Shown: one piece after another, positions 4,275-53,402 of the stretch | Layout of the letters: each line of letters starts with the position of its first letter | How positions within the stretch are numbered: position 1 is the stretch's first letter | Source of the DNA: a virus | Taxonomy: Duplodnaviria > Caudoviricetes | IMG/VR virus record: IMGVR_UViG_3300035659_000019 | Coordinates: 1-53,402 of that record | Strand: one strand, 5' to 3' | Length of the DNA: 53,402 nucleotides | The notes under the pieces: model-generated | The model's input: the letters and a program-made list of their open reading frames with translations, nothing else | Databases searched by the model: none | Told to the model about the DNA's origin: nothing | Translations under genes and position numbers: made by a program

Positions 4275-4303
4275 TTGACTTGGAGTTAGAATTCATGTAC
4301 AAT
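4275..4303 (+). promoter_or_regulatory. Sigma70-type early promoter
   Basis: TTGACT-17 bp-TACAAT. Confidence 0.75.
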
Positions 4304-4662: not shown

Positions 4663-4935
4663 ATGACTACAAAACGTTATACATCAAAATCACACAACTT
4701 CTTCGATAACGACAAAAACATAACACAATATCATCATCCACGTAATCGACAACTTCCACCACACATCGTCTACAAACTAGAGCGAGAGTCAACAGATGGT
4801 GGCACAGTAATATGTGGCATATGTCACGAGAGATTCACAGTAACAGCTTGTGTCTGGTCAAGAAGAAGCTGGACTGAAGAACCACAATACTTTTGTAAGT
4901 ATTGCGTCAAGTTTCACAAGCTTACAAGAGTGTGA
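4663..4935 (+). CDS. Hypothetical zinc-finger protein
   Basis: GGAG RBS; CGIC...CKYC. Confidence 0.6.
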   Translation: MTTKRYTSKSHNFFDNDKNITQYHHPRNRQLPPHIVYKLERESTDGGTVICGICHERFTVTACVWSRRSWTEEPQYFCKYCVKFHKLTRV

Positions 4936-4944
4936 GTAATGTGA

Positions 4945-5083
4945 CACACTCAGCTCTGATAAGCTTACAATCTGAGCTGTCCGCTGAAGTCGAGTGAGAG
5001 ACTAAACGTGCTAGTCAATACTAGAGTGACGTCTGCACTTGCTTCCAGCAGCTCAGTTGTCAAGCTTGTCAGAGCTGAGTGTG
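4945..5083 (+). ncRNA. Putative structured RNA: ~35-bp imperfect stem closing a branched loop
   Basis: CACACTCAGCTCTGATAAGCTTACAATCTGAGCTG pairs with CAGCTCAGTTGTCAAGCTTGTCAGAGCTGAGTGTG. Confidence 0.55.
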
Positions 5084-5122
5084 GCCCACCTAAAACCACA
5101 CCAACACCTTAGGAGGTGTACG

Positions 5123-8946: not shown

Positions 8947-9300
8947 ACACCCGTGTAGTATGGATTCAACTCCTCGTTACCCGTGTAAGGACCGCTCCTA
9001 GGCGTTTACCCGCGTAAAAATCCTCTCACGGTCTTTACCCGTGTAGAAGGAATTCAACACCATGCTCCCCGTGTAAAGTCCGGCCCCTACCTTTTACCCG
9101 TGTACCACAGTTAATCAAACGCGCTCCCCGTGTAAAGACCAGCGCGGCACCACTACCCGTGTAGTAGGATGTTCAAAGACGGCTACCTACGTAGCTAAGG
9201 AGCAAATCACCGCTACCCGTGTAAAAACACCCAAACACGCAGACCCGCGTAACTCTCACCGCTACCCGTGGCACAGTTACCCGCCAGAGGCGCACCCGCC
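8947..9300. repeat. Array of (T)ACCCGTGTA motifs at 29-30 bp period with variable spacers
   Basis: CCCG(T/C)GTA cores start at 8950, 8980, 9009, 9038, 9068, 9097, 9127, 9156, 9186 (degenerate), 9216 and 9244; decayed copies at 9265, 9280, 9295. Confidence 0.9.
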
Positions 9301-9389: not shown

Positions 9390-9418
9390 TTGACATAAAA
9401 TTACTAATATTCTATAAT
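9390..9418 (+). promoter_or_regulatory. Perfect-consensus sigma70 promoter
   Basis: TTGACA-17 bp-TATAAT. Confidence 0.9.
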
Positions 9419-9480: not shown

Positions 9481-9897
9481 ATGGCTAACGACAAGAACAC
9501 CGCCCCTAAGACTTCGTATTCCATCGAGGAAGCTGCAAAGTTCCTCGGAATGCGCAGCCAGTACGTCCGGACGCTAATCCGGACCGGCAAGCTGCCCAGC
9601 ACGAAGGTACAGTTAAGCGAGAACATGTGGCGCCACGAGATCGCACTCGCAGCGCTCGAGGCTCGCAAGGCCGCAGGAAGCACTCGCGGCAAGCCGGCGA
9701 ACGGCAACAAGTACTTCATCCACGCAACTCCAGTCGTACTTGCTCGGCTTCAGGCGATCGTCGCGAAGGAAGGCCTAAGCATTACCTTCGCCCCCGCATA
9801 CGACAAGGCCAAGGCGAAAGCCCAGTACCTGAAGCAGAAGGCCAAGAAAGCCGCCGCGAAGAACGGCACGCTCAAAGCCGTCGTCGAGAAGAAGTAG
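9481..9897 (+). CDS. Xis/HTH_17-like DNA-binding protein with Lys/Ala-rich tail (paralogue 3)
   Basis: YSIEEAAKFLGMRSQYVRTLIRTGKLPS; tail KAKAKAQYLKQKAKKAAAK. Confidence 0.8.
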   Translation: MANDKNTAPKTSYSIEEAAKFLGMRSQYVRTLIRTGKLPSTKVQLSENMWRHEIALAALEARKAAGSTRGKPANGNKYFIHATPVVLARLQAIVAKEGLSITFAPAYDKAKAKAQYLKQKAKKAAAKNGTLKAVVEKK

Positions 9898-10789: not shown

Positions 10790-13122
10790 ATGGATATAAA
10801 TTTGGAAGACGAACGAATCACCTCGCTCGAAGAGAGCGAACGCATCGAAGTGATCGATGTGGCGCTCAACGCATGGGCAATGGGTACTGCTCTGGATGTC
10901 GCCGACTCTCTTCAAGGCGACGAAAAGGCACGAGAGTTCATCCTCCAGCACATCGAGATGATCGACTACGTCGCTGGGCAGGCCGCACATCTACTCGAGG
11001 TGCACTTCACACCGCCGCCTGTAGACGCTCTCACGGTTGCAACCGCACTTACGGATCCCGACGTCTTTGCAGACCATCCTAACGGACTCGTAGACATGAT
11101 CGGCAGCCACCCAGCGTACATTGAAGCCTGTGTTGGTCGTATCGCAGCCGTACTGGGTACCGGCGTTGCATTGATCTACGAAGATGTAGGCTACCGGCAC
11201 CTCGACGAAGAGACCACCAAAAAGGTCCGCGACATCGACGAGCAACTATATCTCGATGTACTACAGGCTCTACATTACCAAGAAAGGAAGGAGTACCATG
11301 CCACCCAAGGGTAGCACATTGATCCTCGATACGTATGAGGATCCATTTAGTCAGCTGGTGGAGTTTCTACAGAGCCTCCCTAATCCAGAGGCGCCCATCA
11401 GCATCCATGAAGTAGACCCGAGCATGACCTACAAAGTTCGGCCCTACTTTACGGCGTTCAGCAAGCGACAGGCAGTCCTCATTCTGAGGATCCTAAAAGA
11501 CACACTATGTGAGTGGGAAGCTTGGGGCCCACCCGAGAAGTACCCAATGACCTACACCAAGCAGGACATCATTCGTATGATAGCACAACTAAAGGCGGTG
11601 CTAAATGTCAAGCACGAGTGACACACTAACCAAAGCCCAGGAGTGGGAAGAGGCTCACTCATTTGAGGAGTGGCAAGCCTTACCCGTTACCAGAGACGAC
11701 CTGGATCAATGCATCTGCGATGCAATCCACGCCGCTCTGGCGATCCCTGGGGTATGGGATGCAGTCATGTCACAGGCCCACAAGGAAGACTTTACCACGC
11801 CTGAGGACGACGACCCGTACTCTATTCCCTTCTACTATATTTGGGAACATCTAACAACAGAGGAGGTATCAAGTGACAAGCAAACTAGTACGTCATAAGG
11901 TCAGCGTCTCGGTCTACAAAGTAGGTGCGGATCAACCAATCCTGCACGTAGAGCTCGAAGACTACGACCCCATTCGAACGGATGGCGAAGTTTATCGAAC
12001 CGCCACCCCAGTCAATGGCCATTACATCTTTGTTGGGGTCGAACCGCTCCCCGATCAACCGCGTATAAGCCTTACCCGAGCGCAAGCAAAGACCGCGCTC
12101 GAAGGGTGCTACGCTCAGATCAGCGAGTACGACACGATGCCCAACGACCCCAAGAACGCAAAGTACCGTACCTTGGCGCAGACACTCGAAGAGTTCCTAC
12201 AGACCAGCCGCACTCCACCTAAAAAGCGGAAGCCGGCTGACATCGAGATTCACTTCACGCCATCGGTTAAATCGAACTACGGTCCTGATCCTGACGTTAG
12301 CGACGTAATTCGCCAACACGAGGAGAGCGGCGATGGCTTCCCTCCCTAACCTTAAGTCCATCGAAGGGGCCCTCAACGACTTCGTCGACAAACTAACAGC
12401 CGGCAATGAGGCTGCCCTCGTCGAGATGCGGAGGAAACGCGAAATGCCTATCCAACTTGACCCCACAGGAGATCCCTACGAGCGCCTGACTGAGTTCCTA
12501 GAAGCCGCGATGACTTATGCGCAACGCGGCGAGTGGCCTCTAGTTCAGGAGATGCTAACCAACGCCAACGAGGCGTTATCATATATCGTGCCAATCGGCG
12601 CACCATTTCGTCATATATGGACGACTACACCCGCCGATAGCTTTGACCTTTGGGTATGTGCGCGATGCGGCAAACATTCGAACGACCCAGTTCCAAACGC
12701 AAAGGAGGTTTGCAATGACAGTGCAAGCAGTGGTTAGAATAGCCAAGGATCCGCGAGGCGGCAGTACCTGGCTCGTAGACCTTGGATTCGTCCATCCTAG
12801 TCTGGGATGGACTTCGATTCACCAAGTGAATCACATCCCCAGCGTAGCCGTAAGCGTTGTCGAGAAGTACATTCAAGCAGATGGCTACAAAATGAGCGAC
12901 GACCTCGAGACGGAGATTTCGTATCTCCGCATGCATCTAGCTGCACGCATCGATGACGCGGAACAGCAACTAAACCAGCATGACTACGAAGAGGCCGCCA
13001 ACTGTCTCAACGTGGCAAGCGGCCATGCAAGCGCAATCGCAGGTCTCTGGCCTAAGTATCTAGCCTCGCTCACAGATGTTATAAACGCGCGAGAGGAGTT
13101 ACGTCATGCCTTCCCCAAGTAA
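10790..13122 (+). other. Run of six overlapping early hypothetical genes (10790-11314, 11298-11621, 11605-11898, 11873-12349, 12333-12737, 12715-13122)
   Basis: Each has a GGAG/GAGG-type RBS and overlaps the previous stop; TATAAT at 10759; no recognisable family. Confidence 0.6.
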
Positions 13123-13420
13123 AGTTCAGCATACCGCAATCGACGTCGAGCTAGGCGAGAAACCTGCTCGAGCCTCGGTCAGCGAGTTCCAGGGTAAGAA
13201 CTACATATCCCTGCGTTATACGTACGAGGACCGTAACACGCATGAGACCAAGTTCGGTCAGAACGGAATTAACATGCAGGCCGGTACTGACGTTGCTACG
13301 CTCATTGAGGTTGGCGTAGAAGCGATCGAGTCCCTCATCAACGTACTCAACGTCTCAGCAGGCACCCACTACCATCTGGAAATGGAGGATACCAATGCAA
13401 CTGACACCAATAGCATCTAA
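13106..13420 (+). CDS. PC4-like ssDNA-binding protein
   Basis: ASVSEFQGKNYISLRYTYED...FGQNGINM matches the PC4 (V.V.EF.GK.Y.DIR..Y...KGI) pattern. Confidence 0.7.
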   Translation: MPSPSKVQHTAIDVELGEKPARASVSEFQGKNYISLRYTYEDRNTHETKFGQNGINMQAGTDVATLIEVGVEAIESLINVLNVSAGTHYHLEMEDTNATDTNSI

Positions 13421-13679
13421 GCCGCGGAAGCCGTCTGGCGCGTTCATCAAGTACCTTAGGGAGCACAACTTCCGCCCCGGCGAGTTCTTAACCGCTAGGG
13501 ACCTTAGCTTCGCCTACTACCGACATGCAACGAAGCTACCGCTGACAGACGAAGCATGCGCCTATCGACACCGGGATTCGAACTGCCGTGGCAACGCCGG
13601 TTTTGAGATCCGACGCTTACTGGACTACGGCTACATCTCCAAGTTCAAGAAGGGGCACTACATCGTCGTCCACTGGTAA
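13395..13679 (+). CDS. Hypothetical protein, possible winged helix
   Basis: EIRRLLDYGYISKFKKGHY. Confidence 0.5.
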   Translation: MQLTPIASKPRKPSGAFIKYLREHNFRPGEFLTARDLSFAYYRHATKLPLTDEACAYRHRDSNCRGNAGFEIRRLLDYGYISKFKKGHYIVVHW

Positions 13680-13758
13680 CCTTTGATCACTTCGGGGGGA
13701 TCCGAACGACGTTCATTCGCTCGGGTCCTACCTAGGTGCTAAAAGGAGGCACCACATT

Positions 13759-14388
13759 ATGGACCAAATTGATTCGTTCACGGGCGACAACTTCTTCCTG
13801 TCGAACTTCTACCCAGCATGTATCAAAGTAGAAGGTATAGCTTTCCCGACGGTAGAGCACGCATACCAGTACGCTAAGACTCTGATCCAGAATGAGCAGA
13901 TTGCAATTCTGACCGCACCTACACCGGGAGCAGCAAAGCGACTAGGTAAGACGGTTACGCTCCGAGCAGACTGGGAGATGATCAAGGAGGAGGTTATGCG
14001 CAAATGCCTCAGCCAAAAGTTCGCTATACCCGAACTCGGTACGGCTCTCCTCGCTACGGGAACCGCGGAACTTATCGAAGGGAACTCGTGGGGAGATACG
14101 TACTGGGGCGTGTGCAATCACGCAGGCCAAAATCGACTCGGCGAACTGCTAATGCAAGAGCGCAGCAAGGCTAGGATGGACATCGACCCAGACATCCTCA
14201 AAGAGTACTACCTTCGTCGTAACGAGCTAGACTACTTCTTCGAATACCTCGACGCCAACGGCTACGACGTCGAAGCATTCATGGAGAAGAACGAGGCCCG
14301 GCTGGACAAACTCGCCAACCAGCTCGATCTGGCTATCGCAGATCTGCTGGACAACCTAATCGAAGCAGATGCGGAGGGTATCATATGA
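13759..14388 (+). CDS. NADAR (YbiA-like) family hydrolase with acidic C-terminal extension
   Basis: FLSNFYP...FPTVEHAYQYAK...AKRLG...LRADW...ELIEGNSWGDTYWG...GQNRLGELLM. Confidence 0.9.
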   Translation: MDQIDSFTGDNFFLSNFYPACIKVEGIAFPTVEHAYQYAKTLIQNEQIAILTAPTPGAAKRLGKTVTLRADWEMIKEEVMRKCLSQKFAIPELGTALLATGTAELIEGNSWGDTYWGVCNHAGQNRLGELLMQERSKARMDIDPDILKEYYLRRNELDYFFEYLDANGYDVEAFMEKNEARLDKLANQLDLAIADLLDNLIEADAEGII

Positions 14389-15581: not shown

Positions 15582-16103
15582 ATGTATGCCCGCATCTTTA
15601 CAATCTTGCTGGTCGCCGTGCTACTGTTCCCCGCTATGACAGCGTGCGCTACGGTTGCAGGGATTGACCCAAGTGTGGCTCTATCACAGCCACCGTTGGA
15701 TGGAGACATCATCGCAATGCAGTACGGAGCTACCTTGAACGGCATGCGTACCGCACTACGGGAAGCAGGCTATGGCCTACCGCGGATCTTCACAAAAGAC
15801 GCGTTGATGCTCTTCCGTTGGCCAATGTCCCAAGGTTGGGGCTTCGCCGTACTCGATCGCACGCGTACCGGTCTCATTCCAGACAACGGGAACTACGTAA
15901 ACGTCGAGACAATGAAGTCCTTACAAAACGGTCTCGCCGGCTGGAAGCAAGCAGCCCCGGATGAAGTACCTGCTTGGGTGACAACTGCTTTAGGCGGAAT
16001 CCAAGCCTTCGTCGGCACGCTTGCTGGATCACTTACTACAATGTACCTAGTTCCAGCTCCGTGCCCGACGATTAACTGCCTATACCCAACGTCGGAGGAA
16101 TAA
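15582..16103 (+). CDS. Putative lipoprotein or exported protein
   Basis: Signal-like MYARIFTILLVAVLLFPAMTAC ending in a lipobox-like Cys. Confidence 0.6.
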   Translation: MYARIFTILLVAVLLFPAMTACATVAGIDPSVALSQPPLDGDIIAMQYGATLNGMRTALREAGYGLPRIFTKDALMLFRWPMSQGWGFAVLDRTRTGLIPDNGNYVNVETMKSLQNGLAGWKQAAPDEVPAWVTTALGGIQAFVGTLAGSLTTMYLVPAPCPTINCLYPTSEE

Positions 16104-16106
16104 CAA

Positions 16107-16566
16107 ATGTGGACATTCGGTCTCCCCCTATGGGTTATGCTTGCGGCTCGGTACTGCGTTCGCAAGAGAGCAAAGCAAACAGCCCGTACAGAGGATCCTA
16201 GATACGCGCTGAACGCTTACCAGGTCCTCCAAACAAGGGTAATCAACATGCCCTTGACGTACAACGCCTTCGAGATGGAGATTCGTCACCACCTGCTACA
16301 GTGGTTGGCGAAGGAGATTGCAGCTCTCGAGACGCTTATCGCAATGAACGTCGTAGCAGTAGGAGTGATACCTCATGAGTGACCCGCACGCATATATCTG
16401 GTCGCAGGACGGACATGAGTACCACGTTACAGACGACCCAAGCGACGCACCGGAAGGTACAAATGCTTGCCCGCTAGCGGCCGAGACAGATACCTTTCTC
16501 AGTACCTACGAAGGGCTACTCGACGAGTACGATTGTACGCTAATCGACGACCGGCTCAGTACTTAA
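16107..16566 (+). other. Two hypothetical genes (16107-16382, 16375-16566)
   Basis: Coupled ORFs with RBS. Confidence 0.5.
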
Positions 16567-16606
16567 ATAAGTTGGACGTGTTCAACTTTGGTATGTTCTC
16601 CCTTAG

Positions 16607-16640
16607 TTTTAACGTTATTTTCACGTTAGTAGGTTATACT
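16607..16640 (+). promoter_or_regulatory. Candidate activator-dependent middle promoter
   Basis: TTTTAACGTTA-TTTTCACGTT then TATACT; same geometry as 20417-20450. Confidence 0.6.
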
Positions 16641-16687
16641 AAAAGAAAGCACGTCCAACCCATTCTGTTTAGAAAAGGAGTGTTACC

Positions 16688-17110
16688 ATGGTTCTAGATA
16701 CATCTAAGTTCCAGTTCCCGGACGTTATGAACATTCGCTTAGCGAGTGTCTACCTTGACGTCAGCGAACAGCGGATCCGCGCCCTACTTCGGGAGGGCCG
16801 CATCAAGGCGGACAAAGACGAGGCCGGTGCTTGGATCATCAGCAAAGAGGCCCTTGAGGCCTACAAAGCGGAGCACGCGCAAGGACCCAAGCGCACTTCC
16901 GGCGTCAGTGGCAAAGGCAAGGCCTACGTCGTACGCGTACCGTTCCAGAAGATCCAGGCTGTCAAGGATTTCCTTGCCACTCAGGACATCGAGCTGGAGC
17001 AGCGGTACAACTACGACAAGATGAAAGTCTACCAGCAAAAACGGAAGGCTCGTCTTGCCGCAGAGAAGAAAGAGAAAGCCAAAGCCGCCAAGGCTGAAGC
17101 CGCCAGCTAG
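16688..17110 (+). CDS. Xis/HTH_17-like DNA-binding protein with Lys/Ala-rich tail (paralogue 4)
   Basis: MNIRLASVYLDVSEQRIRALLREGRIKADK...WIISKEALEAY. Confidence 0.85.
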   Translation: MVLDTSKFQFPDVMNIRLASVYLDVSEQRIRALLREGRIKADKDEAGAWIISKEALEAYKAEHAQGPKRTSGVSGKGKAYVVRVPFQKIQAVKDFLATQDIELEQRYNYDKMKVYQQKRKARLAAEKKEKAKAAKAEAAS

Positions 17111-17120
17111 TCAACAGGTC

Positions 17121-17609
17121 GGTGGACCTCGCCTGATGGTCCACCCACCAAATAGACTTAGGATCGACAGATTGATCCCAAGTCTACTTGGTGAGCAATG
17201 TGAGGCTCACTTCGCTTTGGGGGAGGCGTGGACTTCTGTGTGGTCCTCCTTCCTAAAAAACACGACTGCTGGCTACAGTCGTCCTCCTTTGGTGTTCTAC
17301 ACGCCTCCCCCATCGCAGTTGGCCGACAATAGTGCCGGAGAAATTTCTAGCAGCAAAGGAGCCAGACGTATTGCCGGCCAACTGCGGTACAGAGCGTATA
17401 GTCGTACTCGTATGACATTAAGATCGTGTGAGCCAAAAGGGTGAGGCGATAAGGGTAGCAACCCCGCCGCCAACCCCCTACCTGTACCGTACTCACTTTT
17501 CCGCGTAACGTCTAACGCGTCGCTCCACATCTGTGGTCGCTTGACCGTAATTGACGTAGCGTGTGGCAGTGAGAGTGGAGACCGTCCCCCTGCAGAGGCG
17601 GTCTCCACT
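17121..17609 (+). ncRNA. Large structured non-coding region with at least seven consecutive stem-closed domains
   Basis: Stems GGTGGACC/GGTCCACC, TAGACTTaGGATC/GATCCcAAGTCTA, GTGAGC/GCTCAC, TGGGGGAGGCGTG/CACGCCTCCCCCA, CGCAGTTGGCCG/CGGCCAACTGCG, GGTACAG/CTGTACC, AGTGGAGACCG/CGGTCTCCACT; no credible ORF. Confidence 0.7.
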
Positions 17610-17624
17610 TTTAGAGGAGGCATA

Positions 17625-18374
17625 ATGCAAACGATCGGTTGTGACTTAGCATACTGTAACGACATTGGCTCTACCGGCTACGCAAAAATGAAGGAAGGCG
17701 GCATCGTCTATGCATGGTCCAAGCTTACACAAGGGACTCGCGTCCACGATGACCACTTCTTAGCACATTGGAATGGTTGCGGTAATGCCGGAATCCTACG
17801 AGGTGCGTATCACATGTACGAACCTCTCGCGTCTGCTGACCAACAGCTGGCGTACATTAAGGAGTGCTATCCCTGGAAGGAAGCGGACTTGCCGTTCGCG
17901 TTGGATGTCGAGATCGACTTGCAGGCAACCAACGCATCCCTAATCAACGCAGTAGATCGTCTCTTAGTACTACTGTGGAACGAGTATGGCAGTAAGCCAA
18001 TCATCTACACAGGCCGCTGGTGGTGGAACTACAACATGACTCCTGCGGAACTGTGGATGTCGGAGTACGACTTCTGGTGCGCACAGTATCCATATGCGGC
18101 CGGAAGAGTCGATCTTACTTGGGGAGCGTTATCCTCCATACTACCTACGGGTTGGACACAACCTGTAACTGGCGGTAAGACGCCCGTGATCTGGCAGTTT
18201 AGCGGCGACAAGTTCTTTTTTCCTGGTGTCGGAGGCGCACTAGACTTGAACCTGTTCAACGGTAACGAAGCCGCCTTCCGAGTGTGGGCCAAAGCTGCAC
18301 CGCTAGAACCGGATTGGGAACACAGTGTTGATCCGTTCCTCCGGACGCTTGGTTATACAGGAAGGGCACCATGA
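17625..18374 (+). CDS. GH25 muramidase (endolysin)
   Basis: IGCDLAY...KLTQG...RGAYH...ALDVE...PIIYT...IWQFS...LDLNLFNG; GAGGAGG RBS. Confidence 0.9.
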   Translation: MQTIGCDLAYCNDIGSTGYAKMKEGGIVYAWSKLTQGTRVHDDHFLAHWNGCGNAGILRGAYHMYEPLASADQQLAYIKECYPWKEADLPFALDVEIDLQATNASLINAVDRLLVLLWNEYGSKPIIYTGRWWWNYNMTPAELWMSEYDFWCAQYPYAAGRVDLTWGALSSILPTGWTQPVTGGKTPVIWQFSGDKFFFPGVGGALDLNLFNGNEAAFRVWAKAAPLEPDWEHSVDPFLRTLGYTGRAP

Positions 18375-18493
18375 ACCACCGGCATACGTCTTGCCTTGGA
18401 ATCGTCATTACTAGCATCCTCGGTACTCTAGTCTACCTCTGCATCTGTGGAGGCTGCTATCTACTAATGGCTCTCGTCGGAGGTGGAGGATGA
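18371..18493 (+). CDS. Small single-TM peptide (40 aa, not in ORF track)
   Basis: ATGA-coupled to both neighbours; LGIVITSILGTLVYLCICGGCYLLMALV. Confidence 0.55.
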   Translation: MNHRHTSCLGIVITSILGTLVYLCICGGCYLLMALVGGGG

Positions 18494-18939
18494 CATATAC
18501 AGTAATAGGTATAGATCCAGGGCACACAACAGGCTTCGTGAAGGCGTGCCTCCATGATAACGATCGCATCGAGGTGGTGGACGCTCAAGAGATTGCGTGG
18601 GAGAGTAGGTTTGATCTCATACCTCTCTTGAAGTGTTACGTCGGATTGGCCCAACCAGCCTACGATGCGGTCGTCATGGAGTCCTTCAATCTATTTAGTT
18701 GGAAGGCGGAGGCGCAAATCGGTTCCGCCTTCCCTTCTGCTCAAATCATTGGTATCGCTGACACCGCCTTGTACCTTGCTGGCACACAGCACATGCTTCA
18801 CATGCTACCGCCCGCAGTCAAGGCCCGCATCTCGCTCGCCCGGATCCAAGATGCTCGGTGGCAAAAGAGTGAGCACCTCAAGGATGCCGTAAAGCTCATT
18901 CGGTACTACATTGTAAAGCATGTGTCTATTACAGCGTAA
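18490..18939 (+). CDS. RuvC-like Holliday junction resolvase
   Basis: VIGIDPGHTTG...VVMESF...HLKDA. Confidence 0.75.
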   Translation: MTYTVIGIDPGHTTGFVKACLHDNDRIEVVDAQEIAWESRFDLIPLLKCYVGLAQPAYDAVVMESFNLFSWKAEAQIGSAFPSAQIIGIADTALYLAGTQHMLHMLPPAVKARISLARIQDARWQKSEHLKDAVKLIRYYIVKHVSITA

Positions 18940-19076
18940 CATTCTACATATCCTCATTGAGGAGATGTCCCTCGGCAACTTAGACCCATCCTATTTCAGA
19001 GAGGGAGGCGGCGATTTGGCGTCTCCTTCGAGTGCAGCCATGTCTTTACACCAGCTAGCGGAAAGACTAAAGACCC

Positions 19077-20492: not shown

Positions 20493-21575
20493 ATGAAACA
20501 TAGCATCCACATCAGCGATGTTAGAAGCTTCAAGTCATGCCGTCGCAAATGGGCTTGGTCTAGTCCGCTACGGCGTAACTTGGAGCCCAACATTCCATAC
20601 GCTCCGTTCTTTACTGGACGCGGGCTCCACTATTGTTTGGAGATGTTCTATAGAGAACATACACCATTCTTGGACTCCCTGAAGCGGTTCCTCGAAATCG
20701 AGCTAGCCGAGATGGAGAAGACTGGTCGTCTGTGGCCTCAGGAGCAGTCCAAGATGGACGAGCAGATTGCTCTCATGATGGGCATGCTTAGTCACTACAA
20801 CCTCTGGGTCACAAAGGACCGCACTACGCGACTACGTGACGAGAACATCGAATGGCTCTCGTTCGAAAGGGAATTCAGTGTCCCCCTCTACAACCCCTAT
20901 ACTGGAAATAAATCTTCCAAGGTATACCTTGCAGGACGTTTCGATGGACTTGTCAAGTTGCTGCCGGAAGGCGGCATATGGATTTGGGAGACTAAAAGTA
21001 CCAGATCCATCTTCGAACTCGAGAACAGCCTCGCAAATGACGAACAGTGCGGCGCTTACATCTATGCTGCAGAGCAGCTGTTCGGCGTACCTGTTACTGG
21101 CGTTATCTACAACGTCATGCGTAAGAAACTTCCAACAGAGCCTGCAGTCCTTCAAAACGGCCTCCTCTCGAAGAACAAGGCCATAGATACGACAGCAGAA
21201 GCATATCTGGAAGCGGTCCGTCGTAATCATCCTGACTGGGACAACGCTCTTACGCTACAGTTCTACGAGGACATACTACAGCATCTCATCGCTAAGGGCA
21301 ACACGTTCTTTGCTCGCGTAGCGATTTACCGTACGCCAACTGAGATTCAACGGTTGGCGTCAAATCTCTGGGCTGTCGCTTTGGAGATGACTCGTGAGTC
21401 AACGATCATTTATGATGCTCCGGGCTGGCTGAGTTGCAACTTCTGCCATTTCCGTGCCCCTTGCCTAGCAATGAATGCGGGTGCGGATCACGAGTTCCTA
21501 CTCGAGCAGGAGTATCGGAAGCGAACGGATACCAGAGAGCTACTGTACGCAGAGGAGGACCAGAATGGCAAGTAA
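20493..21575 (+). CDS. Cas4-like PD-(D/E)XK exonuclease
   Basis: N-terminal SCRRKW, GRFDGL...WETK, QCGAY, C-terminal CNFCHFRAPC. Confidence 0.85.
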   Translation: MKHSIHISDVRSFKSCRRKWAWSSPLRRNLEPNIPYAPFFTGRGLHYCLEMFYREHTPFLDSLKRFLEIELAEMEKTGRLWPQEQSKMDEQIALMMGMLSHYNLWVTKDRTTRLRDENIEWLSFEREFSVPLYNPYTGNKSSKVYLAGRFDGLVKLLPEGGIWIWETKSTRSIFELENSLANDEQCGAYIYAAEQLFGVPVTGVIYNVMRKKLPTEPAVLQNGLLSKNKAIDTTAEAYLEAVRRNHPDWDNALTLQFYEDILQHLIAKGNTFFARVAIYRTPTEIQRLASNLWAVALEMTRESTIIYDAPGWLSCNFCHFRAPCLAMNAGADHEFLLEQEYRKRTDTRELLYAEEDQNGK

Positions 21576-21990
21576 CCCAATAACAGCGGAGTACATCGCT
21601 GGGCTGTTCGATGGCGAGGGCTCTATATGCTGTCTCCATAATGTAAGTGGGACCCCCCGCGTACAGTTAAACGTTACGAACACAAATCGTGAGGTTCTAG
21701 TAGACCTCAAGGAGTTCTTTGGTTTTGGTACTATGGCTAATAGCTCGGCCTTTGGTACACGCCCATGTTACCAGTGGCAGCTTGCTGGAGCACCCAAGGT
21801 CATAGAGGTCCTAACTGAGTTGCTTCCGTACCTTCGGGTCAAAGAGAAGCAGGCAAAGATTGCGGTACAGCTATGCGAGCGAATCGCAAGTAGTGCTGGC
21901 CGGAGTAGGCGTCCCTTATCGGACGAAGAATACTCCATTCGCGAAGGCCTAGCGGCTGAAATTACTGCATACAACAAAGGAGGTACCTAA
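21565..21990 (+). mobile_element. Free-standing single-motif LAGLIDADG homing endonuclease gene (HEG1)
   Basis: EYIAGLFDGEGSI...LLPYLRVKEKQA. Confidence 0.9.
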
Positions 21991-23302: not shown

Positions 23303-23336
23303 AGACCCCTTCTAACCCGCCGGGAGGGGTCTCTTT
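23303..23336 (+). terminator. Intrinsic terminator
   Basis: AGACCCCT...AGGGGTCT followed by CTTT. Confidence 0.6.
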
Positions 23337-25745: not shown

Positions 25746-26059
25746 TGGATGGAAGAGTAACGTTGCGGTCAGCCGTAAAGAGCCAGCTCCAGACCTTGAA
25801 ATCGGAGACGGCTTTCTATTACGGCGAGGTTGTTGAAATAAAGGGCGTGAAGTTTACCATAACGCGTATGAACAACTCTACGCTATGTGTACACCCCATC
25901 AATAAGTTCCGGCATTTCGCTGGCATTCTTTTAGTAGAGGAGAGTGAACATGTTACAACAGGTGTTGCAGATTCAGAAGGAACTGGCGCCCCCGAGAGCA
26001 GTAGTACTCCTGTCGGGCGGGATGGACAGCACGACGTGCCTGTCCCAAGCAATCCGTGA
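25745..26059 (+). CDS. Hypothetical protein
   Basis: TAATG-coupled to the primase gene; overlaps queC. Confidence 0.45.
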   Translation: MDGRVTLRSAVKSQLQTLKSETAFYYGEVVEIKGVKFTITRMNNSTLCVHPINKFRHFAGILLVEESEHVTTGVADSEGTGAPESSSTPVGRDGQHDVPVPSNP

Positions 26060-26723
26060 CGGGAACGACGAGATCTTAGCGGTTACGTGTTTCTATGGAA
26101 GCAAACACGCCGCTGCAGAGGTTGGCGCTTCACGTCAGATCGTGGAGTGGTATAACAGTCGTGGCATAGCGAAGGTCGACCAACGAATCATCGAGCTACC
26201 TAATATCTTTAGAGGGTCGGGCTCGGCACTTATGAACGAGGTCAATATGCCACAGATGTCCTACGCAGACATACACGAGTCCTTTGGTCCTAGTCCAACG
26301 GTCGTACCGTTTCGCAATGCCAACCTTATCTCGGTAGCGACAACGCTCGCTATCGGCTTCAAGGCCACATCCGTATACATCGCTGCACACGCAGATGATG
26401 CACACAACTGGGCCTATCCTGATTGCACACCAGAGTTCCTGGGTGCGATGGCTGCTGCCGTGTACATAGGTTCGTACCATGCAGTTACCCTACGGTTTCC
26501 GTTCGTCTGGATGACCAAGGCCAACATCGTTGCGTGCGCGGAGATGGCGCCCTACGCTCCTCTCGGGCTCACCTGGTCTTGTTACGAAGACGGGCTACAA
26601 CAATGTGGTACTTGCCCAACGTGTATCGAACGTATCCACGCTTTTAGGGTGAACGGTTGGAAGGATCGACGTACTTACGAAGCTCCAGTCGATTGGATGA
26701 ATCTCCCGGAGTTTCCATATTAG
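25950..26723 (+). CDS. queC: 7-cyano-7-deazaguanine synthase
   Basis: VVLLSGGMDSTT, VPFRN, YPDCTPEF, TWSCY...CGTCPTC. Confidence 0.95.
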   Translation: MLQQVLQIQKELAPPRAVVLLSGGMDSTTCLSQAIRDGNDEILAVTCFYGSKHAAAEVGASRQIVEWYNSRGIAKVDQRIIELPNIFRGSGSALMNEVNMPQMSYADIHESFGPSPTVVPFRNANLISVATTLAIGFKATSVYIAAHADDAHNWAYPDCTPEFLGAMAAAVYIGSYHAVTLRFPFVWMTKANIVACAEMAPYAPLGLTWSCYEDGLQQCGTCPTCIERIHAFRVNGWKDRRTYEAPVDWMNLPEFPY

Positions 26724-26731
26724 GAGGATGT

Positions 26732-26977
26732 ATGAACTTCTTCAAAGACTCAACTACCAAAGACCTGCAAGAGATACTGACAGGTGTGGCCGCTCACGGC
26801 ACGCGACAGTTGGTCCAGAGAGTTTGGGCTGTAATTACTCTGACGGCCTGGTTTTCTCTGATGGCCTGCTTTTGGCTTCACATGTTTGCTACGGACGTAA
26901 AGGTAGTAGGTCCTTCCATCTTCTTCGCCGTTGTATTCATTAGTTGCGTAATCATCATACAAGGAGGTCCGAGATGA
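26732..26977 (+). CDS. Two-TM membrane protein
   Basis: AGGAGG RBS; two hydrophobic segments. Confidence 0.6.
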   Translation: MNFFKDSTTKDLQEILTGVAAHGTRQLVQRVWAVITLTAWFSLMACFWLHMFATDVKVVGPSIFFAVVFISCVIIIQGGPR

Positions 26978-27399
26978 CCGTTACTATATCGCGTGAGTAC
27001 TCGTTCAGCGCAGCACACCGCCTTGAGGGGCATCCCCAGTGCGGTCGTATGCATGGCCACAACTACGTAGTCGAGGTGATCGTCGAGGCAAGCATCTTCG
27101 AGCTATCGCCGAACGGCATGATCCTAGACTATCATGACCTCGACGAGATTGTCAAGCCCATCGTTGCACTACTGGATCATCGTTACCTTGTTAGCGATGC
27201 GAATGCTCGTGCTGGCGACGTTTACTATAAGGCAGTACCTCGTGACTGCTATCTCATGGATGTCGAGCAAACTACGGCGGAGCTCATTGCGGGATGGTTC
27301 TTTGCAAAGCTTGAGGTACACTACCGGCTAAAGCATTACGGGATAGTTGTGATCATCTCAGAGACTCCAAAGAGCAAGGCCGCATATGCGGCAGACTGA
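26974..27399 (+). CDS. queD: 6-carboxy-5,6,7,8-tetrahydropterin synthase
   Basis: FSAAHRL...CGRMHGHNY...LDHRYL...TTAE...ETP. Confidence 0.93.
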   Translation: MTVTISREYSFSAAHRLEGHPQCGRMHGHNYVVEVIVEASIFELSPNGMILDYHDLDEIVKPIVALLDHRYLVSDANARAGDVYYKAVPRDCYLMDVEQTTAELIAGWFFAKLEVHYRLKHYGIVVIISETPKSKAAYAAD

Positions 27400-27438
27400 T
27401 CTACGCCTAAAGGAGCTAAATAAGACAGGAGGTGAACT

Positions 27439-27792
27439 GTGAAGCAGGTCGATCTGGCCTATGCGGCAGGGTTCTTTGACGGAGAAGGGTCTATTACGAT
27501 CTCGAACAAAGGCGGTTATGTTCGAATCGAGGTAGCCGTCTCTCAAAAACTGCCTGCAGTACTCCAGTGGTGGGAGACTCACTTTGACGGCAATACATAT
27601 CACAGCGTAGTCTCCCAGTGGAAGATTCATGGCTCTAAAGGCGTCGCACTCTTAACGTTACTTCTCCCGTATCTTATCGTTAAGAATGTCGACGCTCAAG
27701 AGGCAATTCATATATGGTCGATACGAGCTGACCGCGAGCTCACGACACAACTAATCAATGAAAGGAAGGTTCGACGTGGTAAAGTTTCTTGA
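27439..27792 (+). mobile_element. Free-standing LAGLIDADG homing endonuclease gene (HEG2, divergent)
   Basis: LAYAAGFFDGEGSI...LLPYLIVK. Confidence 0.85.
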
Positions 27793-28165
27793 TGTCAATC
27801 CCGATGAGTTTGATAATACCCGAGAAGGCAGACGTGGACGTGTTGCGTATCCTATCCTAAAAGAGTTCCTTGAGACAGGCAAGTTCATGGCCCAGCTTGA
27901 TCGAACGGGAATGCAACAGTCGTTCCAGTCTCTCTGCAGTACGCTAAATGCGTACATCCGTAACCATGTTATGCCAATCAAGATTATCACCCGACAGATG
28001 CAAATCTACCTGATGCGGCTTGACGTGGATAAAGAAGGTAAGGCCATCCCAGACTGGGTTGCTAAGAGCCTCGGAGCTCCGCTCCTTCTAGGTGAGGCTC
28101 CCGTAATCGATGCTGCGGAAGTCCAAAAGCGGATGGCAGTTGAAATCAACAAGAGTACGAAATGA
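27776..28165 (+). CDS. Hypothetical protein
   Basis: GTG start after AAGGAAGG; ATGA-coupled to the next gene. Confidence 0.55.
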   Translation: MVKFLDVNPDEFDNTREGRRGRVAYPILKEFLETGKFMAQLDRTGMQQSFQSLCSTLNAYIRNHVMPIKIITRQMQIYLMRLDVDKEGKAIPDWVAKSLGAPLLLGEAPVIDAAEVQKRMAVEINKSTK

Positions 28166-28821
28166 ACGTTCTTGTTGTATGTGCTAAGCGTTATAACGGC
28201 CACGAACTTTGGGTTACCTTGGGTGTGCTTCAATCTAGAGGGCACACCTCCGAGGTCGTTTCAACGCAAACCCTTATCTCGGACGAGGTTACTGGACAGG
28301 CTAATACCATCAAACGGACTCTCGACGACGTAGCAACCCTCGAAGGCTTCGATGCTCTCGTATTTGTTTCGGGCAATATGCAAGATACAGAGGCGCACTG
28401 GAAGCACCCAAGGACGTTAGCCTATGTGCATGAGGCCATCGAGCGTAACCTGCCTATAGCCGCAATCTGCTGCTCCGTTCCTATTGTCAAGGAGGCTGTA
28501 AAGGGGAAGCGAGTCTCCTTCTTTCCTCTCGTACGCTCTCGTGAGATTCTTAGAAACGCGGGTGCAATACTTCAAACAGTAACTATAAGTGTCGACGGGA
28601 AGCTCGTTACTGCGGAGCACCAGATGGCTACACAGGTCTGGGTGGAAGAATTCTGCAATGTGCTCGATGGTACGGAGTCGAGCCTGCATCTCGTTGACTC
28701 TGGCTACAAGCCAAAAGGGCGTGAACGTAAGGCGATCCCGGAACTCGAGCACCTTCGGCAAATCGTTCGCAAGACAGGACGGACGGATATCGATGATACC
28801 AAACCTAGTAAAGGAACGTAG
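28162..28821 (+). CDS. DJ-1/PfpI family (class I glutamine amidotransferase-like) protein
   Basis: Conserved Glu in YNGHEL, FDALVFVSG, nucleophile elbow IAAICCS, VKGKRVS, VDGKLVTA. Confidence 0.8.
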   Translation: MNVLVVCAKRYNGHELWVTLGVLQSRGHTSEVVSTQTLISDEVTGQANTIKRTLDDVATLEGFDALVFVSGNMQDTEAHWKHPRTLAYVHEAIERNLPIAAICCSVPIVKEAVKGKRVSFFPLVRSREILRNAGAILQTVTISVDGKLVTAEHQMATQVWVEEFCNVLDGTESSLHLVDSGYKPKGRERKAIPELEHLRQIVRKTGRTDIDDTKPSKGT

Positions 28822-29050
28822 CGATAAGTACGGTGAAGCCTGGCTAACTACAGGCGAGATCGCACGCGACCTAGATGCAGTCGGTCGCCTTCCTGCCTTC
28901 GCTCTGTTCCCTTGGTTAATAATCCTGAACAAGCTTATCCGGGCGCTCACGTCTCCGTACCACATCGATCACTGGAGAGACATTGCTGGTTACGCTTACA
29001 TAGTTACTGAGCACTTAGAAAAGGTGCAACATGACAAAGTACAAGGTTAA
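28793..29050 (+). CDS. DUF6378-like alpha-helical putative nucleotide pyrophosphohydrolase
   Basis: ER...YG...KLIR...HIDHWRDIAGYA. Confidence 0.65.
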   Translation: MIPNLVKERSDKYGEAWLTTGEIARDLDAVGRLPAFALFPWLIILNKLIRALTSPYHIDHWRDIAGYAYIVTEHLEKVQHDKVQG

Positions 29051-29690
29051 CGAAATATTTCATTCAATCCAGGGTGAAGGTTACTGGTCAGGACGGCCGG
29101 CAACCTTCATCCGTCTTCAAGGATGCAACCTAACCTGCAACTGGTGTGATACGAAGTACGCACTAGGAGCAGGTGGTGAATGGATGGACACGAGAGAGGT
29201 CACCCGCCAGATTCGTATCGGCAATATGGCTGTTATTACTGGCGGCGAGCCGATGCTCTGGGATCTCGAGGAGCTTTTAGCGAACCTTGCGTTCCTTGGT
29301 GTCTACACCCAAATCGAGACGAACGGCACGCTAAAGCCGCTCTATATATCGGAGCCTAATTGGCTTACTGTATCTCCTAAGCCCGTATGTCCGATAGCAT
29401 CGGATAAAGTACTCCCTGCCCAGTTAGCTTTTAGGCAGCCTTGGGAAGTAAACGAGTACTACTATACGTACGCAAACGAGTTCAAGTGGGTTGTAGACGG
29501 TGATCTTAGCTTCGACTGTGTCGAAGCCGCGTGGAGGCGATGCCGTAGAAAGCGACCGCCTGTTTTCTCCCTAATGCCAGAGGGCTGTCCGCCCAAACCC
29601 GAGTTTGTACATCTTGCTCTAGTCTGGCTCGAGAAACATCCTGCCTGGCGTTACTCGGATCGACTACAGTGGAGGATAGGTGTGAAATGA
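29031..29690 (+). CDS. queE: 7-carboxy-7-deazaguanine synthase (radical SAM)
   Basis: EIFHSIQGEG, FIRLQGCNLTCNWCDT, ITGGEP, IETNGT, VSPK. Confidence 0.95.
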   Translation: MTKYKVNEIFHSIQGEGYWSGRPATFIRLQGCNLTCNWCDTKYALGAGGEWMDTREVTRQIRIGNMAVITGGEPMLWDLEELLANLAFLGVYTQIETNGTLKPLYISEPNWLTVSPKPVCPIASDKVLPAQLAFRQPWEVNEYYYTYANEFKWVVDGDLSFDCVEAAWRRCRRKRPPVFSLMPEGCPPKPEFVHLALVWLEKHPAWRYSDRLQWRIGVK

Positions 29691-30782: not shown

Positions 30783-31473
30783 GATGTCGTACCATCTGCT
30801 CCTAGGCCAGAAGCTCGTTACTGACCTAAAGTACTTAGAGTGGGCAGAGATGCGGCACTACCAAGGAGATTTCCTTATCGTCGATAACGGAGCCGCTGAG
30901 CCCGAGCAGGAGCGTGTGCCTTTCGAAAATATCCTCAAGGTTGCGTTGAACATTTACGCAGACGAGATCGTCGTACCAGACGTCATACGTAACTCTGAGT
31001 TGACACTCGAAATGGCTCGACACTGGGGTCCAACGATTCCGCTCAACAAGCGTCTAATCATTCCTCAGGGACGTGACCTGGAAGAGTGGAAGTCGTGCTT
31101 CCTTGAGCTGAAGCATCTACTTAGCTTCGTAGCCGTGGGCATACCAAAGCATGCCGAGACCTTCAAAGGAGGTCGAGCTGCTATCCTCATGTGGCTTCAC
31201 GAAGCGGACTTCTGCCGCCGATCTAATATTCATCTCTTCGGCTGTCATACAGATCCCCTGGAAGAGATCCGCCAGGCGATAAGGATCTGTCCTGAGATCC
31301 GAGGGATCGACACTGGAGCGGCGGTTGCCTACGCTCAAGTAATGCAACCGCTCACGTGCGGCAAGCACTTTGGAGTCGAGTGGGATAAACAAGCAGATCC
31401 TCGAAGCATATCGTACAACATGTGCTCGATAGCGAACTGCATAGAGGAGGAACTGAATGCATATAACCATTGA
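30733..31473 (+). CDS. TGT/DpdA-like guanine transglycosylase (divergent)
   Basis: TGT-like motifs LIVDNGA, VVPDV, IIPQG, VAVGIP, IHLFG, GIDT inside a que/folE cluster. Confidence 0.7.
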   Translation: MKYAAITPTPYLPLLNRMSYHLLLGQKLVTDLKYLEWAEMRHYQGDFLIVDNGAAEPEQERVPFENILKVALNIYADEIVVPDVIRNSELTLEMARHWGPTIPLNKRLIIPQGRDLEEWKSCFLELKHLLSFVAVGIPKHAETFKGGRAAILMWLHEADFCRRSNIHLFGCHTDPLEEIRQAIRICPEIRGIDTGAAVAYAQVMQPLTCGKHFGVEWDKQADPRSISYNMCSIANCIEEELNAYNH

Positions 31474-31870
31474 GTACATCGCTGGGCTGTTCGATGGCGA
31501 AGGTTGTATAACTTGCAACCACACGCAAAGCGCCCCCATAATACACTTGCAAGTCTCTAATTGCAATCGTCCGATCTTAGAGGAGCTTAAGGCATTCTTT
31601 GGTCATGGTACTATCCAGACCAATGGCGGCGGAGGTGATCGACCCGTATACTGTTGGCACACGAGCGGCGCCTCTAAGGTTACGGAGGTCTTAACGAAGC
31701 TTCTTCCATACCTTCGGATCAAGCAGAAGCAGGCATCGATTGCGCTGAAACTATGCGAACGTATCATAAATCGGGTCGGGCGAGCTTGGCCTGCATTAAC
31801 CTACGAAGAGTACTCCCTCAGAGAAGGTCTTGCAGAAGAGATTACTCGTCTCAACAAAGGAGGTACGTAA
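31457..31870 (+). mobile_element. Free-standing LAGLIDADG homing endonuclease gene (HEG3, close paralogue of HEG1)
   Basis: EYIAGLFDGEGCI; 29 nt identical to HEG1 (31472-31500 = 21589-21617); same EEYS.REGLA.EIT..NKGGT end. Confidence 0.9.
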
Positions 31871-32127
31871 TGCATATCACAGTCAAGGATCAGACTACCG
31901 GCTCAGATGCTACGATGTGCGTAGAACGTAGTACGGGCACTTGCGTTATCCTTGGGGGAGATATCGACATGTTTGACAAGCTCGTAAACATGGCGAACTC
32001 TCTCAAGGCGGACTCTGTAACTATACTCGCTGCTACGCCAGCCGTAGCGGCGCTCGAGGCTCTCGGCTGGAAGGCATCTGAAACAGTAGTCGCTATGACT
32101 AAGCTTACAAGGAGGGCTAGACAATGA
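31870..32127 (+). CDS. Hypothetical protein
   Basis: AAGGAGG RBS, TAATG coupling. Confidence 0.55.
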   Translation: MHITVKDQTTGSDATMCVERSTGTCVILGGDIDMFDKLVNMANSLKADSVTILAATPAVAALEALGWKASETVVAMTKLTRRARQ

Positions 32128-34475: not shown

Positions 34476-34508
34476 AAAAGACCCCAGTCAAACGGCTGGG
34501 GTCTTTTC
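34476..34508. terminator. Bidirectional intrinsic terminator between the converging operons
   Basis: AAAAGACCCCAGTC-AAAC-GGCTGGGGTCTTTT. Confidence 0.85.
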
Positions 34509-47796: not shown

Positions 47797-47808
47797 TGGT
47801 TGCTCCTT

Positions 47809-47838
47809 CTGGGGGAGCCTTGCCTAAGGGCTCCCCCA
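47809..47838 (-). terminator. Hairpin after the major capsid gene (terminator or stabiliser)
   Basis: TGGGGGAGCC/GGCTCCCCCA stem; no clear U-tract on the minus strand. Confidence 0.5.
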
Positions 47839-47863
47839 TCTTCGGGAGGAGAGAAATGCTACT

Positions 47864-48922
47864 TTAGATGATCGTAGGATCAGCCCAAGTGGCATTCGCA
47901 AAGTAGTGGATCGCGCCGTTGGTACGCGTCCAGACACCGAGTCCGTACTCGGACTCCATATACTGGGCGTGCAGCGGGTACGCATCGATTTCCGCAGCGA
48001 TCCGGAGACCCTGCAAACCAGTATTGCTCCGTTGTCGGAACGCAAGAGGTTTGTTTGGAGTTCCAGCGTCCCAGCAGAACGCGTAGTTCGCGATGGCCCA
48101 CGGCTTTACCCAAACTTCAGCAGCACCTAGAATACCGATCGCTCGGTTATCGAGGCGCGAGATATCCAAAGTTTGTGCCGTAGTATCCGTCACGCGGTAG
48201 ACGATCCGAGGATCGACGTACGCCACGAAGCCCGTGAGCGCGCGAAATGCAGCTTCGTCAGCCTGTGCAATCGCGAGCTTGATGGCCGTGCCGTGACCGT
48301 GCTCTATAACGTTAGAGATCAACGCGATGATGTTCGCAACGAGGAGCGTAGCGGCGGCAGTGTAGTGCTGGTGAGATGCTCCGTCGAAAACCTCACCGTT
48401 AGGACCCGGTGGGATGTCTGCACTATCGGCGTTGACGAGACGCTTTACAGATAGCGCGACATTATCAACCAGGTGGTCGGTCCAGGTATAGTTCGTAGCC
48501 TGGTACAGAGCCTTCTTGATGTCGCGGCGTAACGCACGTACGTGCGCTTTCTCCGCGGCGAGAGTAGCGATAGCCAGATCAGCAGGAGTCTTCGTTTGGA
48601 GCCACTTACGAGTCCAACCGATAGCATACTGGTTCAGCTTCAGTGGGAACCCAACAGTGGCGCCTACGAGCGGGCGTTGTGTAGGCGCACGACCGAATTC
48701 GTCGACGTCATACATTTCGCCTTCTACCCCAGCGCCGTAGATGCGCTGACGATCGGTAGTACCTTCACAGAACTCACCAAGCAAGTCCTGCATGATCCGG
48801 TTGTGTGCAGCAAGATCGGACTGCAGGATCGCGATAATCCTGTTTTCGCCGAACTCCGCAACGCTCTGGATGCGAGCAGCAAGCAGAGATGAGATGTCAA
48901 GAGTTCCAACAATGGTAGGCAT
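47864..48922 (-). CDS. Major capsid protein
   Basis: 352 aa, follows the scaffold and decoration genes, followed by a hairpin and the adaptor gene. Confidence 0.8.
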   Translation of the reverse strand: MPTIVGTLDISSLLAARIQSVAEFGENRIIAILQSDLAAHNRIMQDLLGEFCEGTTDRQRIYGAGVEGEMYDVDEFGRAPTQRPLVGATVGFPLKLNQYAIGWTRKWLQTKTPADLAIATLAAEKAHVRALRRDIKKALYQATNYTWTDHLVDNVALSVKRLVNADSADIPPGPNGEVFDGASHQHYTAAATLLVANIIALISNVIEHGHGTAIKLAIAQADEAAFRALTGFVAYVDPRIVYRVTDTTAQTLDISRLDNRAIGILGAAEVWVKPWAIANYAFCWDAGTPNKPLAFRQRSNTGLQGLRIAAEIDAYPLHAQYMESEYGLGVWTRTNGAIHYFANATWADPTII

Positions 48923-53194: not shown

Positions 53195-53402
53195 GGTTGG
53201 TTATCTCCTTGTTGTTGATCTGGATTCTTAGATTCGGCGGCCGCTCGCATCACTAGCTGGCTCCGCTTAACTGCTTCGTCGTTCCATGTACGCATCTTAG
53301 CTATAGTCTTCTGGTCATAACCCGCTTCCTTCCATAACTGCTCCTGTGGTATGCCAATAGACTGTTTCTTAATAAGTAGATCCATCTTCTCCTGGTCGCC
53401 TC
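53191..53402 (-). CDS. Portal C-terminus (second, variant copy)
   Basis: MDLLIKKQSIGIPQEQLWKEAGY...QQQGDNQP, compared with KQKIGIPEEQ at the window start. Confidence 0.85.
   Translation of the reverse strand, partial: GDQEKMDLLIKKQSIGIPQEQLWKEAGYDQKTIAKMRTWNDEAVKRSQLVMRAAAESKNPDQQQGDNQP

Follow-up and report, generated by a model that had tools for sequence, protein, structure and literature searches.

The gap between the HTH_17 gene and the endolysin gene of an uncultured phage is occupied by an array of hairpins that is real, statistically exceptional, and an orphan; its last element is an ordinary terminator-like hairpin of a module boundary, and the rest of the array is unexplained. Tentatively, the gap can be considered a lineage-specific spacer of independent hairpin modules, which would be the passively transcribed tail of the early operon, with a leaky terminator at its end that limits read-through into the lysis and replication genes. 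The window, i.e., the whole stretch of DNA that was analyzed, comprises 53,402 bases and represents an IMG/VR virus record that is complete or nearly so (CheckV 95%), and near-identical DNA was found in five sediment metagenome runs. The gap itself, of ~514-515 nt and with a GC content of 0.54-0.55, occupies positions 17111-17624, between the HTH_17 stop codon (TAG, 17108-17110) and the endolysin start codon (ATG, 17625).

Folding of the gap and its hairpin modules

In the comparison with dinucleotide shuffles, which the preliminary description had named as a possible refutation, the gap folded far better than the shuffled sequences on each strand. The MFE on the plus strand is -221.3 kcal/mol, against -170.3 +/- 6.6 kcal/mol for the shuffles (z -7.78), and on the minus strand it is -241.7 kcal/mol (z -9.98), with 0 of 100 shuffles as good in either case. 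Eight controls from the same genome, five other gaps and three coding stretches, gave z values from +1.3 to -3.8 (15 shuffles each). When the plus strand was scanned with a sliding window of 200 nt, only 4901-5100 and 47801-48000 were more over-folded than the gap, and on either strand the gap windows rank within the top three or four. It is also worth mentioning that a hairpin with a ~45-bp stem (4940-5088; z -7.0, 0 of 200 shuffles as good) is located between the gene 4663-4935 and a weakly HTH_17-like gene that begins at 5123 and has its SD 20 nt beyond the stem.

Seven stem-closed domains had been listed from the sequence at the outset. Five of them, D1, D2, D3, D4, and D7 (Table 1), are robust: each has an ensemble pair probability of at least 0.85 on both strands, and none of 200 shuffles was as good on the plus strand. 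The other two are not: the stem 17191-17210 proved weak, with z -2.2, an ensemble probability of 0.0, and 5 of 200 shuffles as good, and the closing stem 17386-17488 has a probability of only 0.07 on the plus strand and 0.11 on the minus strand. A robust hairpin that the list lacked, at 17492-17573, has been added as D6; it is robust on the plus strand only (pair probability 0.9 versus 0.09 on the minus strand). The chain of hairpins is real, being made of five of the seven listed domains and one unlisted. Within the loosely structured D5 an inner hairpin at 17439-17476 reaches a probability of 0.95 on the plus strand, and a C-rich, G-poor run is present on that strand at ~17459-17500. Linkers of 0-2 nt separate the adjoining hairpin modules, and the sequence of every module is different.

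A single closed 370-nt fold of the gap is not supported. The helix 17114/17485, which closes the MFE structure of the bare gap, has a probability of 0.05 when the folded sequence includes 20 nt of flank, and the helix 17204/17434 has a pair probability of 0.91 on the plus strand and 0.03 on the minus strand. The proposal of one large ncRNA is weakened by these long-range closing helices, which are not robust, and by the lack of the array in both syntenic relatives described below.

Table 1. Features in and around the gap (positions in the window; z values are for each domain folded alone, and probabilities are those of the ensemble; strands in brackets).
Feature	Position	Strand	Description
HTH_17 protein	16688-17110	+	Excisionase-like DNA-binding protein with a Lys/Ala-rich tail; Pfam HTH_17, E 1.2e-6; last early gene
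D1	17117-17149		Hairpin of 10-12 bp, beginning 7 nt past the stop codon; z -4.3 (+); probability 0.98 (+), 1.0 (-)
D2	17146-17193		Hairpin with a 20-bp stem, inverted repeat; z -6.6 (+), -9.2 (-)
D3	17218-17312		Branched domain, inverted repeat; z -5.0 (+), -6.5 (-)
D4	17312-17388		Closing stem of 18-21 bp round 37 nt, inverted repeat; z -4.3 (+), -6.9 (-); probability 0.98-0.99
D5	about 17385-17491		Loosely structured stretch; z -3.6 (+), -2.6 (-)
D6	about 17490-17573	+	Irregular hairpin of the 18-bp class with four G.U pairs; z -4.2 (+), -3.1 (-)
D7	17574-17613	+	Terminator-like hairpin followed by TTTT; 13 bp, -23.4 kcal/mol; z -5.3 (+), -6.2 (-)
GH25 endolysin	17625-18374	+	Pfam Glyco_hydro_25, E 1.6e-25; PHROG endolysin families
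40-aa hydrophobic ORF	18371-18493	+	ATGA overlaps with the endolysin stop and with the start of the RuvC-like gene
RuvC-like gene	18490-18939	+	31% identity to L123:6964-7386 (E 3e-20); 33% to L127:830-1342 (E 9e-20)

The branched domain D3 has a perfect 13-bp GC-rich closing stem that encloses two hairpins, 17230-17246 and 17262-17282; read on the minus strand, the second of these (17282->17262) is followed by GTTTTTT and is terminator-like. The loops of D3 carry on the plus strand two CCTCCTT heptamers (17245-17251 and 17283-17289), and no start codon follows these sites on the minus strand. In the whole genome CCTCCTT was observed 19 times against 6.2 expected; in the plus-strand gene block 12 of its 15 occurrences are in the SD sense, and the D3 pair makes up two of only three antisense ones. 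The stems of D2 (20 bp) and D4 (18-21 bp) are of the size of RNase III substrates (about two turns, ~20 bp) and would fit the initially proposed release of small RNAs by such cleavage.

The MFE structures contain 165 pairs on the plus strand and 171 on the minus strand; 129 pairs are common to both, all of them Watson-Crick, and strand-specific G.U pairs number 12 on the plus and 17 on the minus strand. D2, D3, and D4 fold better on the minus strand, and their three mismatches are A.C on the plus strand, where they weaken the helices; two of them lie in the D2 stem and become G.U pairs on the minus strand. A strand call based on G.U versus A.C pairs was rejected, being contradictory between the left and right halves of the gap. 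Because the shared pairs are all Watson-Crick and G.U pairs occur on both strands, a DNA-level origin of the palindromes fits equally well. With these mixed signals, D2-D4 being better on the minus strand and D6 good only on the plus strand, the sequence decides neither the strand nor an RNA or DNA role.

Gene context and content of the gap

The gap lies within a block of plus-strand genes extending from ~3.6 to 34.5 kb, while the structural genes are on the minus strand. In this block small early genes are followed by the genes for the endolysin, the RuvC-like protein, an SNF2 helicase, a PD-(D/E)XK nuclease, AAA_24, and DUF669; an 801-aa protein, a QueC/radical-SAM cluster, and a UDG-PolA fusion are encoded there as well. 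The genome had been called otherwise tightly packed, which does not hold throughout, other gaps of the early region being 170-340 nt long or more on a crude ORF map. Consensus sigma-70-type promoters on the plus strand are located at 4275, 9390 (12/12 positions matched), and 10531 (11/12); beyond 10.6 kb no plus-strand promoter of such quality was predicted, and no sigma-70-like site was found on either strand in 16000-19000. Since the neighboring genes are all on the plus strand and no promoter is seen, transcription of the gap by read-through on the plus strand would be the default expectation. We infer from the sequence the transcription of the gap, its strand, its termination, and any processing.

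Several other features of this genome deserve mention. Among the early genes at 13106-14388 are those for a NADAR domain protein (E 1.2e-23) and for a PC4-like domain that binds single-stranded DNA (E 1.1e-6). At ~8967-9252 the sequence CCCGYGTAA is present in six exact copies (0.82 expected, 0 of 100 shuffles as good), followed by a perfect TTGACA-17-TATAAT promoter (9390-9418) and an HTH_17 gene (9481-9897); this iteron-like array is a candidate operator or origin. The replication block contains a LAGLIDADG-type ORF pair (21475-21990 and 31457-31870) related to each other, their DNA showing 71-85% identity over 48-206 nt, and a cluster of QueC, radical-SAM, and DJ-1/PfpI genes in 25944-29690 suggests 7-deazaguanine DNA modification. 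PolA (32124-34472) has an N-terminal uracil-DNA-glycosylase domain, and the same UDG-PolA fusion was found in five IMG/VR contigs. The ends of the record, 1-184 and 53217-53400, are direct repeats with 95% identity, representing either a terminally redundant sequence or two strains that overlap in the assembly.

The initial statement that the gap bears no tRNA, tmRNA, RNase P, or intron signature is borne out by the absence of any Rfam family and of any gene called by ARAGORN, and in the Rfam scan proposed at that time no family reached the gathering score anywhere in the window. At E<=10 the only match within 16900-17800 was a chance one to uc_338, of 11.9 bits against a gathering score of 120. 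A remnant of a tRNA cluster was rejected on the ARAGORN result, as were known RNAs on that of Rfam, including the preQ1 riboswitch considered with regard to the QueC cluster. Coding can be rejected as well: two ORFs longer than 100 aa extend into the gap (17055-17444 on the plus strand and 17297-17665 on the minus strand), both of them low-complexity, junk-like, and without a Pfam match, and the largest ORF entirely within the gap encodes 34 aa.

Copies of the array or its modules were sought at several levels. The gap contains no repeat family of at least three copies longer than 9 nt and no direct repeats or iterons, and it shares no promoter or box motif with other gaps beyond SD-like words. 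When the gap was compared by local blastn with the remainder of the window and 126 loci (648 kb), nothing beyond chance was returned, and blastn against 50,697 phage records revealed no homologue. Two modules were used in exact-pattern scans: an arm of D4 had no match in IMG/VR, and an arm of D2 gave 12 single-arm matches in 596 Gb of GTDB genomes, a number that we estimate to lie at or below the chance level. An abstract-level literature search found no described counterpart of the array, which is not to claim that none is in print.

D7 and the junction in related phages

Relatives sharing this junction are rare. Endolysin homologues were found at 13 loci in scans of IMG/VR, with at most 35% identity, and in metagenomes with 56-60% identity; the one close locus that was fetched (L016) is not syntenic, as its endolysin gene follows an AT-rich region and has other surroundings. 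A scan of GTDB with the endolysin alignment gave no relative, and neither did single queries with the HTH, SNF2, and RuvC-like genes. For the HTH protein no homologue was found in a search of 5.8 billion proteins, and tblastn in the phage records yielded none. TerL identified 119 relatives, of which 80 were kept; these have 41-55% identity and replication modules other than that of the window, and the GH25 gene was found in 0 of the 20 records searched out of the 80. The UDG-PolA fusion led to the five IMG/VR contigs mentioned above (43-50% identity), three of which also carry SNF2 and none the endolysin; compared with any cultured phage, PolA has at most 27.6% identity.

Two syntenic relatives were found, G026 and L127, and in both the HTH gene is followed by a hairpin and then by the RuvC-like gene; the ~460-nt array and the endolysin are missing in the two of them. 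In G026 the HTH homologue (L123:6454-6918; 36% identity, E 1e-16) has its own promoter, and 19 nt past its stop codon stands an intrinsic terminator confirmed by the scan (L123:6938-6960; 8 pairs, tail TTTTTGATTT); the RuvC-like homologue begins ~12 nt after the terminator stem, and SNF2 is next. L127, which was reached via the HTH alignment, has 46% identity in the C-terminus of the HTH protein and a 13-bp hairpin 25 nt past the stop codon. Its segment 259-465 runs from the hairpin through about six tandem AAGAGCC-like heptamers to two small ORFs, after which comes the RuvC-like gene.

The HTH to RuvC-like junction is a variable spot, because its content differs in each of the three genomes, and only the phage of the window has the array, the endolysin, and the 40-aa hydrophobic ORF there. 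As the array is missing in both syntenic relatives, it is dispensable for the boundary function. The 40-aa ORF, which has no Pfam match, is a candidate holin-like lysis partner of the endolysin; were it one, a two-gene lysis cassette would have been inserted at this junction. The contigs of three of the four sediment runs compared, with none from run X5, cross the gap and have no differing letter in it, and the only difference in these contigs is a 15-nt in-frame deletion at 17082, in the Lys/Ala repeat of the HTH gene (run X3). In run X2, a contig of 135 nt is similar to the stretch at 17184-17228 only, with two changes, its other 90 nt being unlike it; this hints that a population variant may differ left of 17184.

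The last module, D7, is a GC-rich stem-loop whose stem ends at 17609; TTTT occupies 17609-17612 and is followed by AGAGG. The endolysin SD, AGAGGAGG, occupies 17613-17620, and the earlier observation that the last stem ends 4 nt before it is correct. The terminator scan demanded a U-rich tract of at least five T in the 8 nt right after the stem, and D7 is missing from its results because only four T follow the stem. D7 can be aligned with the G026 terminator via AGACCG...AGGCGGTCT, a likeness not reported by BLAST at E<=10. The AGACC...GGTCT frame is shared by D7 and the hairpins at 23303 and 34479 of the window, and the pattern has four matches against 1.44 expected, a number reached by 4 of 100 shuffles. 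Of these plus-strand hairpins, that at 23303-23332 stops 7 nt short of the GTG of the 801-aa gene, with GGGAGG in its 3' arm, and that at 34476-34507 is a bidirectional terminator where the plus- and minus-strand gene blocks converge.

D7 may mark the end of a transcription unit: G026 has its terminator in the same position, and the scan of the plus strand lists no terminator-like site between 8855 and the gap. The short U run of D7, together with an SD 4 nt past the stem, points to a leaky terminator, and D7 probably is one; alternatively, it could be a hairpin stabilizing a 5' or 3' end. The idea that the last stem gates lysis retains some support from the terminator at the same place in G026, but not as a lysis-specific switch: the position is that of a module boundary, because the G026 counterpart precedes the RuvC-like gene.

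Possible explanations and known systems

In the tentatively favored reading, six or seven independent, very stable hairpin modules would fill the space between the HTH_17 stop codon and the closing unit of a hairpin and a U-run. The gap would be transcribed passively on the plus strand, forming the last part of a long early transcript from the sigma-70 promoters at 4.3, 9.4, and 10.5 kb, and the hairpins would act in cis on this transcript. D7, with its stem at 17574-17609 and UUUU, would serve as a leaky intrinsic terminator limiting read-through into the endolysin gene, the small membrane ORF, and the replication genes, a block that starts 15 nt later. This would leave the downstream block no room for a promoter of its own, so the lysis and replication genes would be reached by transcription through D7. 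The 18-20-bp stems may be dsRNA blocks or processing sites, allowing RNase III-type cleavage, forming barriers to 3'-exonucleases, and protecting the untranslated stretch; the heavy structure could keep this long stretch from easy Rho entry, and the upstream stems could uncouple the fate of the early message from that of the downstream one. The stability of D6 on the plus strand only and the presence of other long hairpins directly ahead of genes in this genome count for the spacer. If such a spacer is what the gap contains, a chain of hairpins and a leaky terminator would insulate the early genes of an uncultured phage lineage from its lysis and replication genes, and insulators of this kind would be accessory cargo swapped at a hot spot.

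It is possible, although rather unlikely, that the array is selfish or accidental palindromic DNA, i.e., REP/BIME/MITE-like insertions or products of template switching in a tolerant spot, carried along in the transcript with no dedicated function. The absence of the array from both syntenic relatives and the different content of the junction in all three genomes would be expected of such DNA; so would the near-perfect stems, equally good on both strands and sharing 129 Watson-Crick pairs, and the X2 contig that hints at a variant left of 17184. The position between a stop codon and a terminator is, as general knowledge has it, typical of such repeats. Nevertheless, no second copy of a module was found in the window, in the 126 loci, or in the scans of IMG/VR and GTDB genomes with the D4 and D2 arms, respectively; the modules all differ in sequence, and linkers of 0-2 nt are odd for independent insertions. 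Were the array mere palindromic filler, it would follow that extreme folding z-scores in phage gaps are not by themselves proof of RNA genes. In both cases, this lineage has a variable insertion site at the HTH to RuvC-like junction, which in the present phage took in the lysis cassette.

A new structured ncRNA, or several small RNAs, produced from either strand and acting in trans as a decoy for a nuclease or defence system of the host or as a regulator of host or phage messages, is doubtful. The exceptional folding, the branched architecture with adjoining helices, and the two CCUCCUU heptamers exposed in the D3 loops would suit it, and an RNA of the plus strand would end in a hairpin and a U-run like the sRNAs derived from mRNA 3' ends. 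Against it stand the lack of a promoter-like site on either strand and of an Rfam relative, the absence of conservation of the array in relatives, the unstable long-range helices, and the contradictory strand signal; long perfect stems are also unlike most conserved ncRNAs. More doubtful is a particular form of this idea, in which a phage-specific multi-hairpin RNA of ~460-500 nt, or hairpin RNAs released from it by RNase III, would be strongly expressed where the early operon ends, serving as a decoy or sponge. Its targets could be dsRNA-binding host factors or defence sensors, or else ribosome-binding sites bound via the CCUCCUU loops, so as to time endolysin translation.

A DNA-level site heading the replication module, whether an origin, a single-strand initiation site, a recombination site, or a cruciform, is improbable. 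The palindromes are strand-symmetric, and the gap is just upstream of the RuvC-like, SNF2, PD-(D/E)XK, AAA_24, DUF669, and PolA genes; yet it has no direct repeats or iterons and is not AT-rich, an iteron array adjoining a consensus promoter is found elsewhere (8980-9252), the hairpin array is missing in relatives whose replication genes are the same, and the GC-skew profile has no turning point at the gap. A lambda-like late leader, with a promoter in the gap and a short RNA stopping at D7 unless the HTH protein modifies RNA polymerase so that it reads through into the lysis genes, is most improbable despite the order of a DNA-binding protein, a non-coding leader, a terminator, and lysis genes, as the gap has no sigma-70-like promoter, HTH_17 is not a Q family, and in G026 the HTH gene has its own promoter and the terminator stem stands 19 nt from its stop codon.

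The array can be set beside several known systems. The late region of phage lambda comprises Q, PR', 6S RNA, tR', S, and R; the gene order here is similar, but unlike in lambda no promoter-like site was found on either strand in 16000-19000. Replication origins have iterons and/or an AT-rich unwinding element, and the gap differs from them in having neither. REP/BIME, BOX, and MITE-type intergenic palindromes are multi-copy families. They resemble the array in being hairpin modules located between a stop codon and a terminator, variable among relatives and folding on both strands, but of the modules described here no second copy was detected in the window, the 126 loci, or the pattern scans of IMG/VR and GTDB. 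In the early and late transcripts of phage T7, RNase III hairpins are located between genes, with one site per junction and a characteristic internal loop. The stable ~20-bp hairpins in an untranslated spacer just upstream of the next ribosome site are similar, except that here five or six unrelated hairpins are chained and the sites are putative.

The array could also be likened to sRNAs derived from mRNA 3' ends (a review is PMC9438474), as a structured segment that uses the terminator of the upstream gene. Known sRNAs of this type are mostly 50-200 nt long and have a seed region, and a stable species released from the gap would be hypothetical. The closest parallel for D7 may be the intrinsic (Rho-independent) terminators of phage module boundaries. 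D7 departs from them in having four T only and ~460 nt of extra hairpins ahead of it, and everything downstream of it depends on read-through, because the next SD starts 4 nt past its stem. In common with them it has a GC-rich 13-bp hairpin and a T run, located where the early block ends, and in the related phage G026 a scan-confirmed terminator stands in its place.
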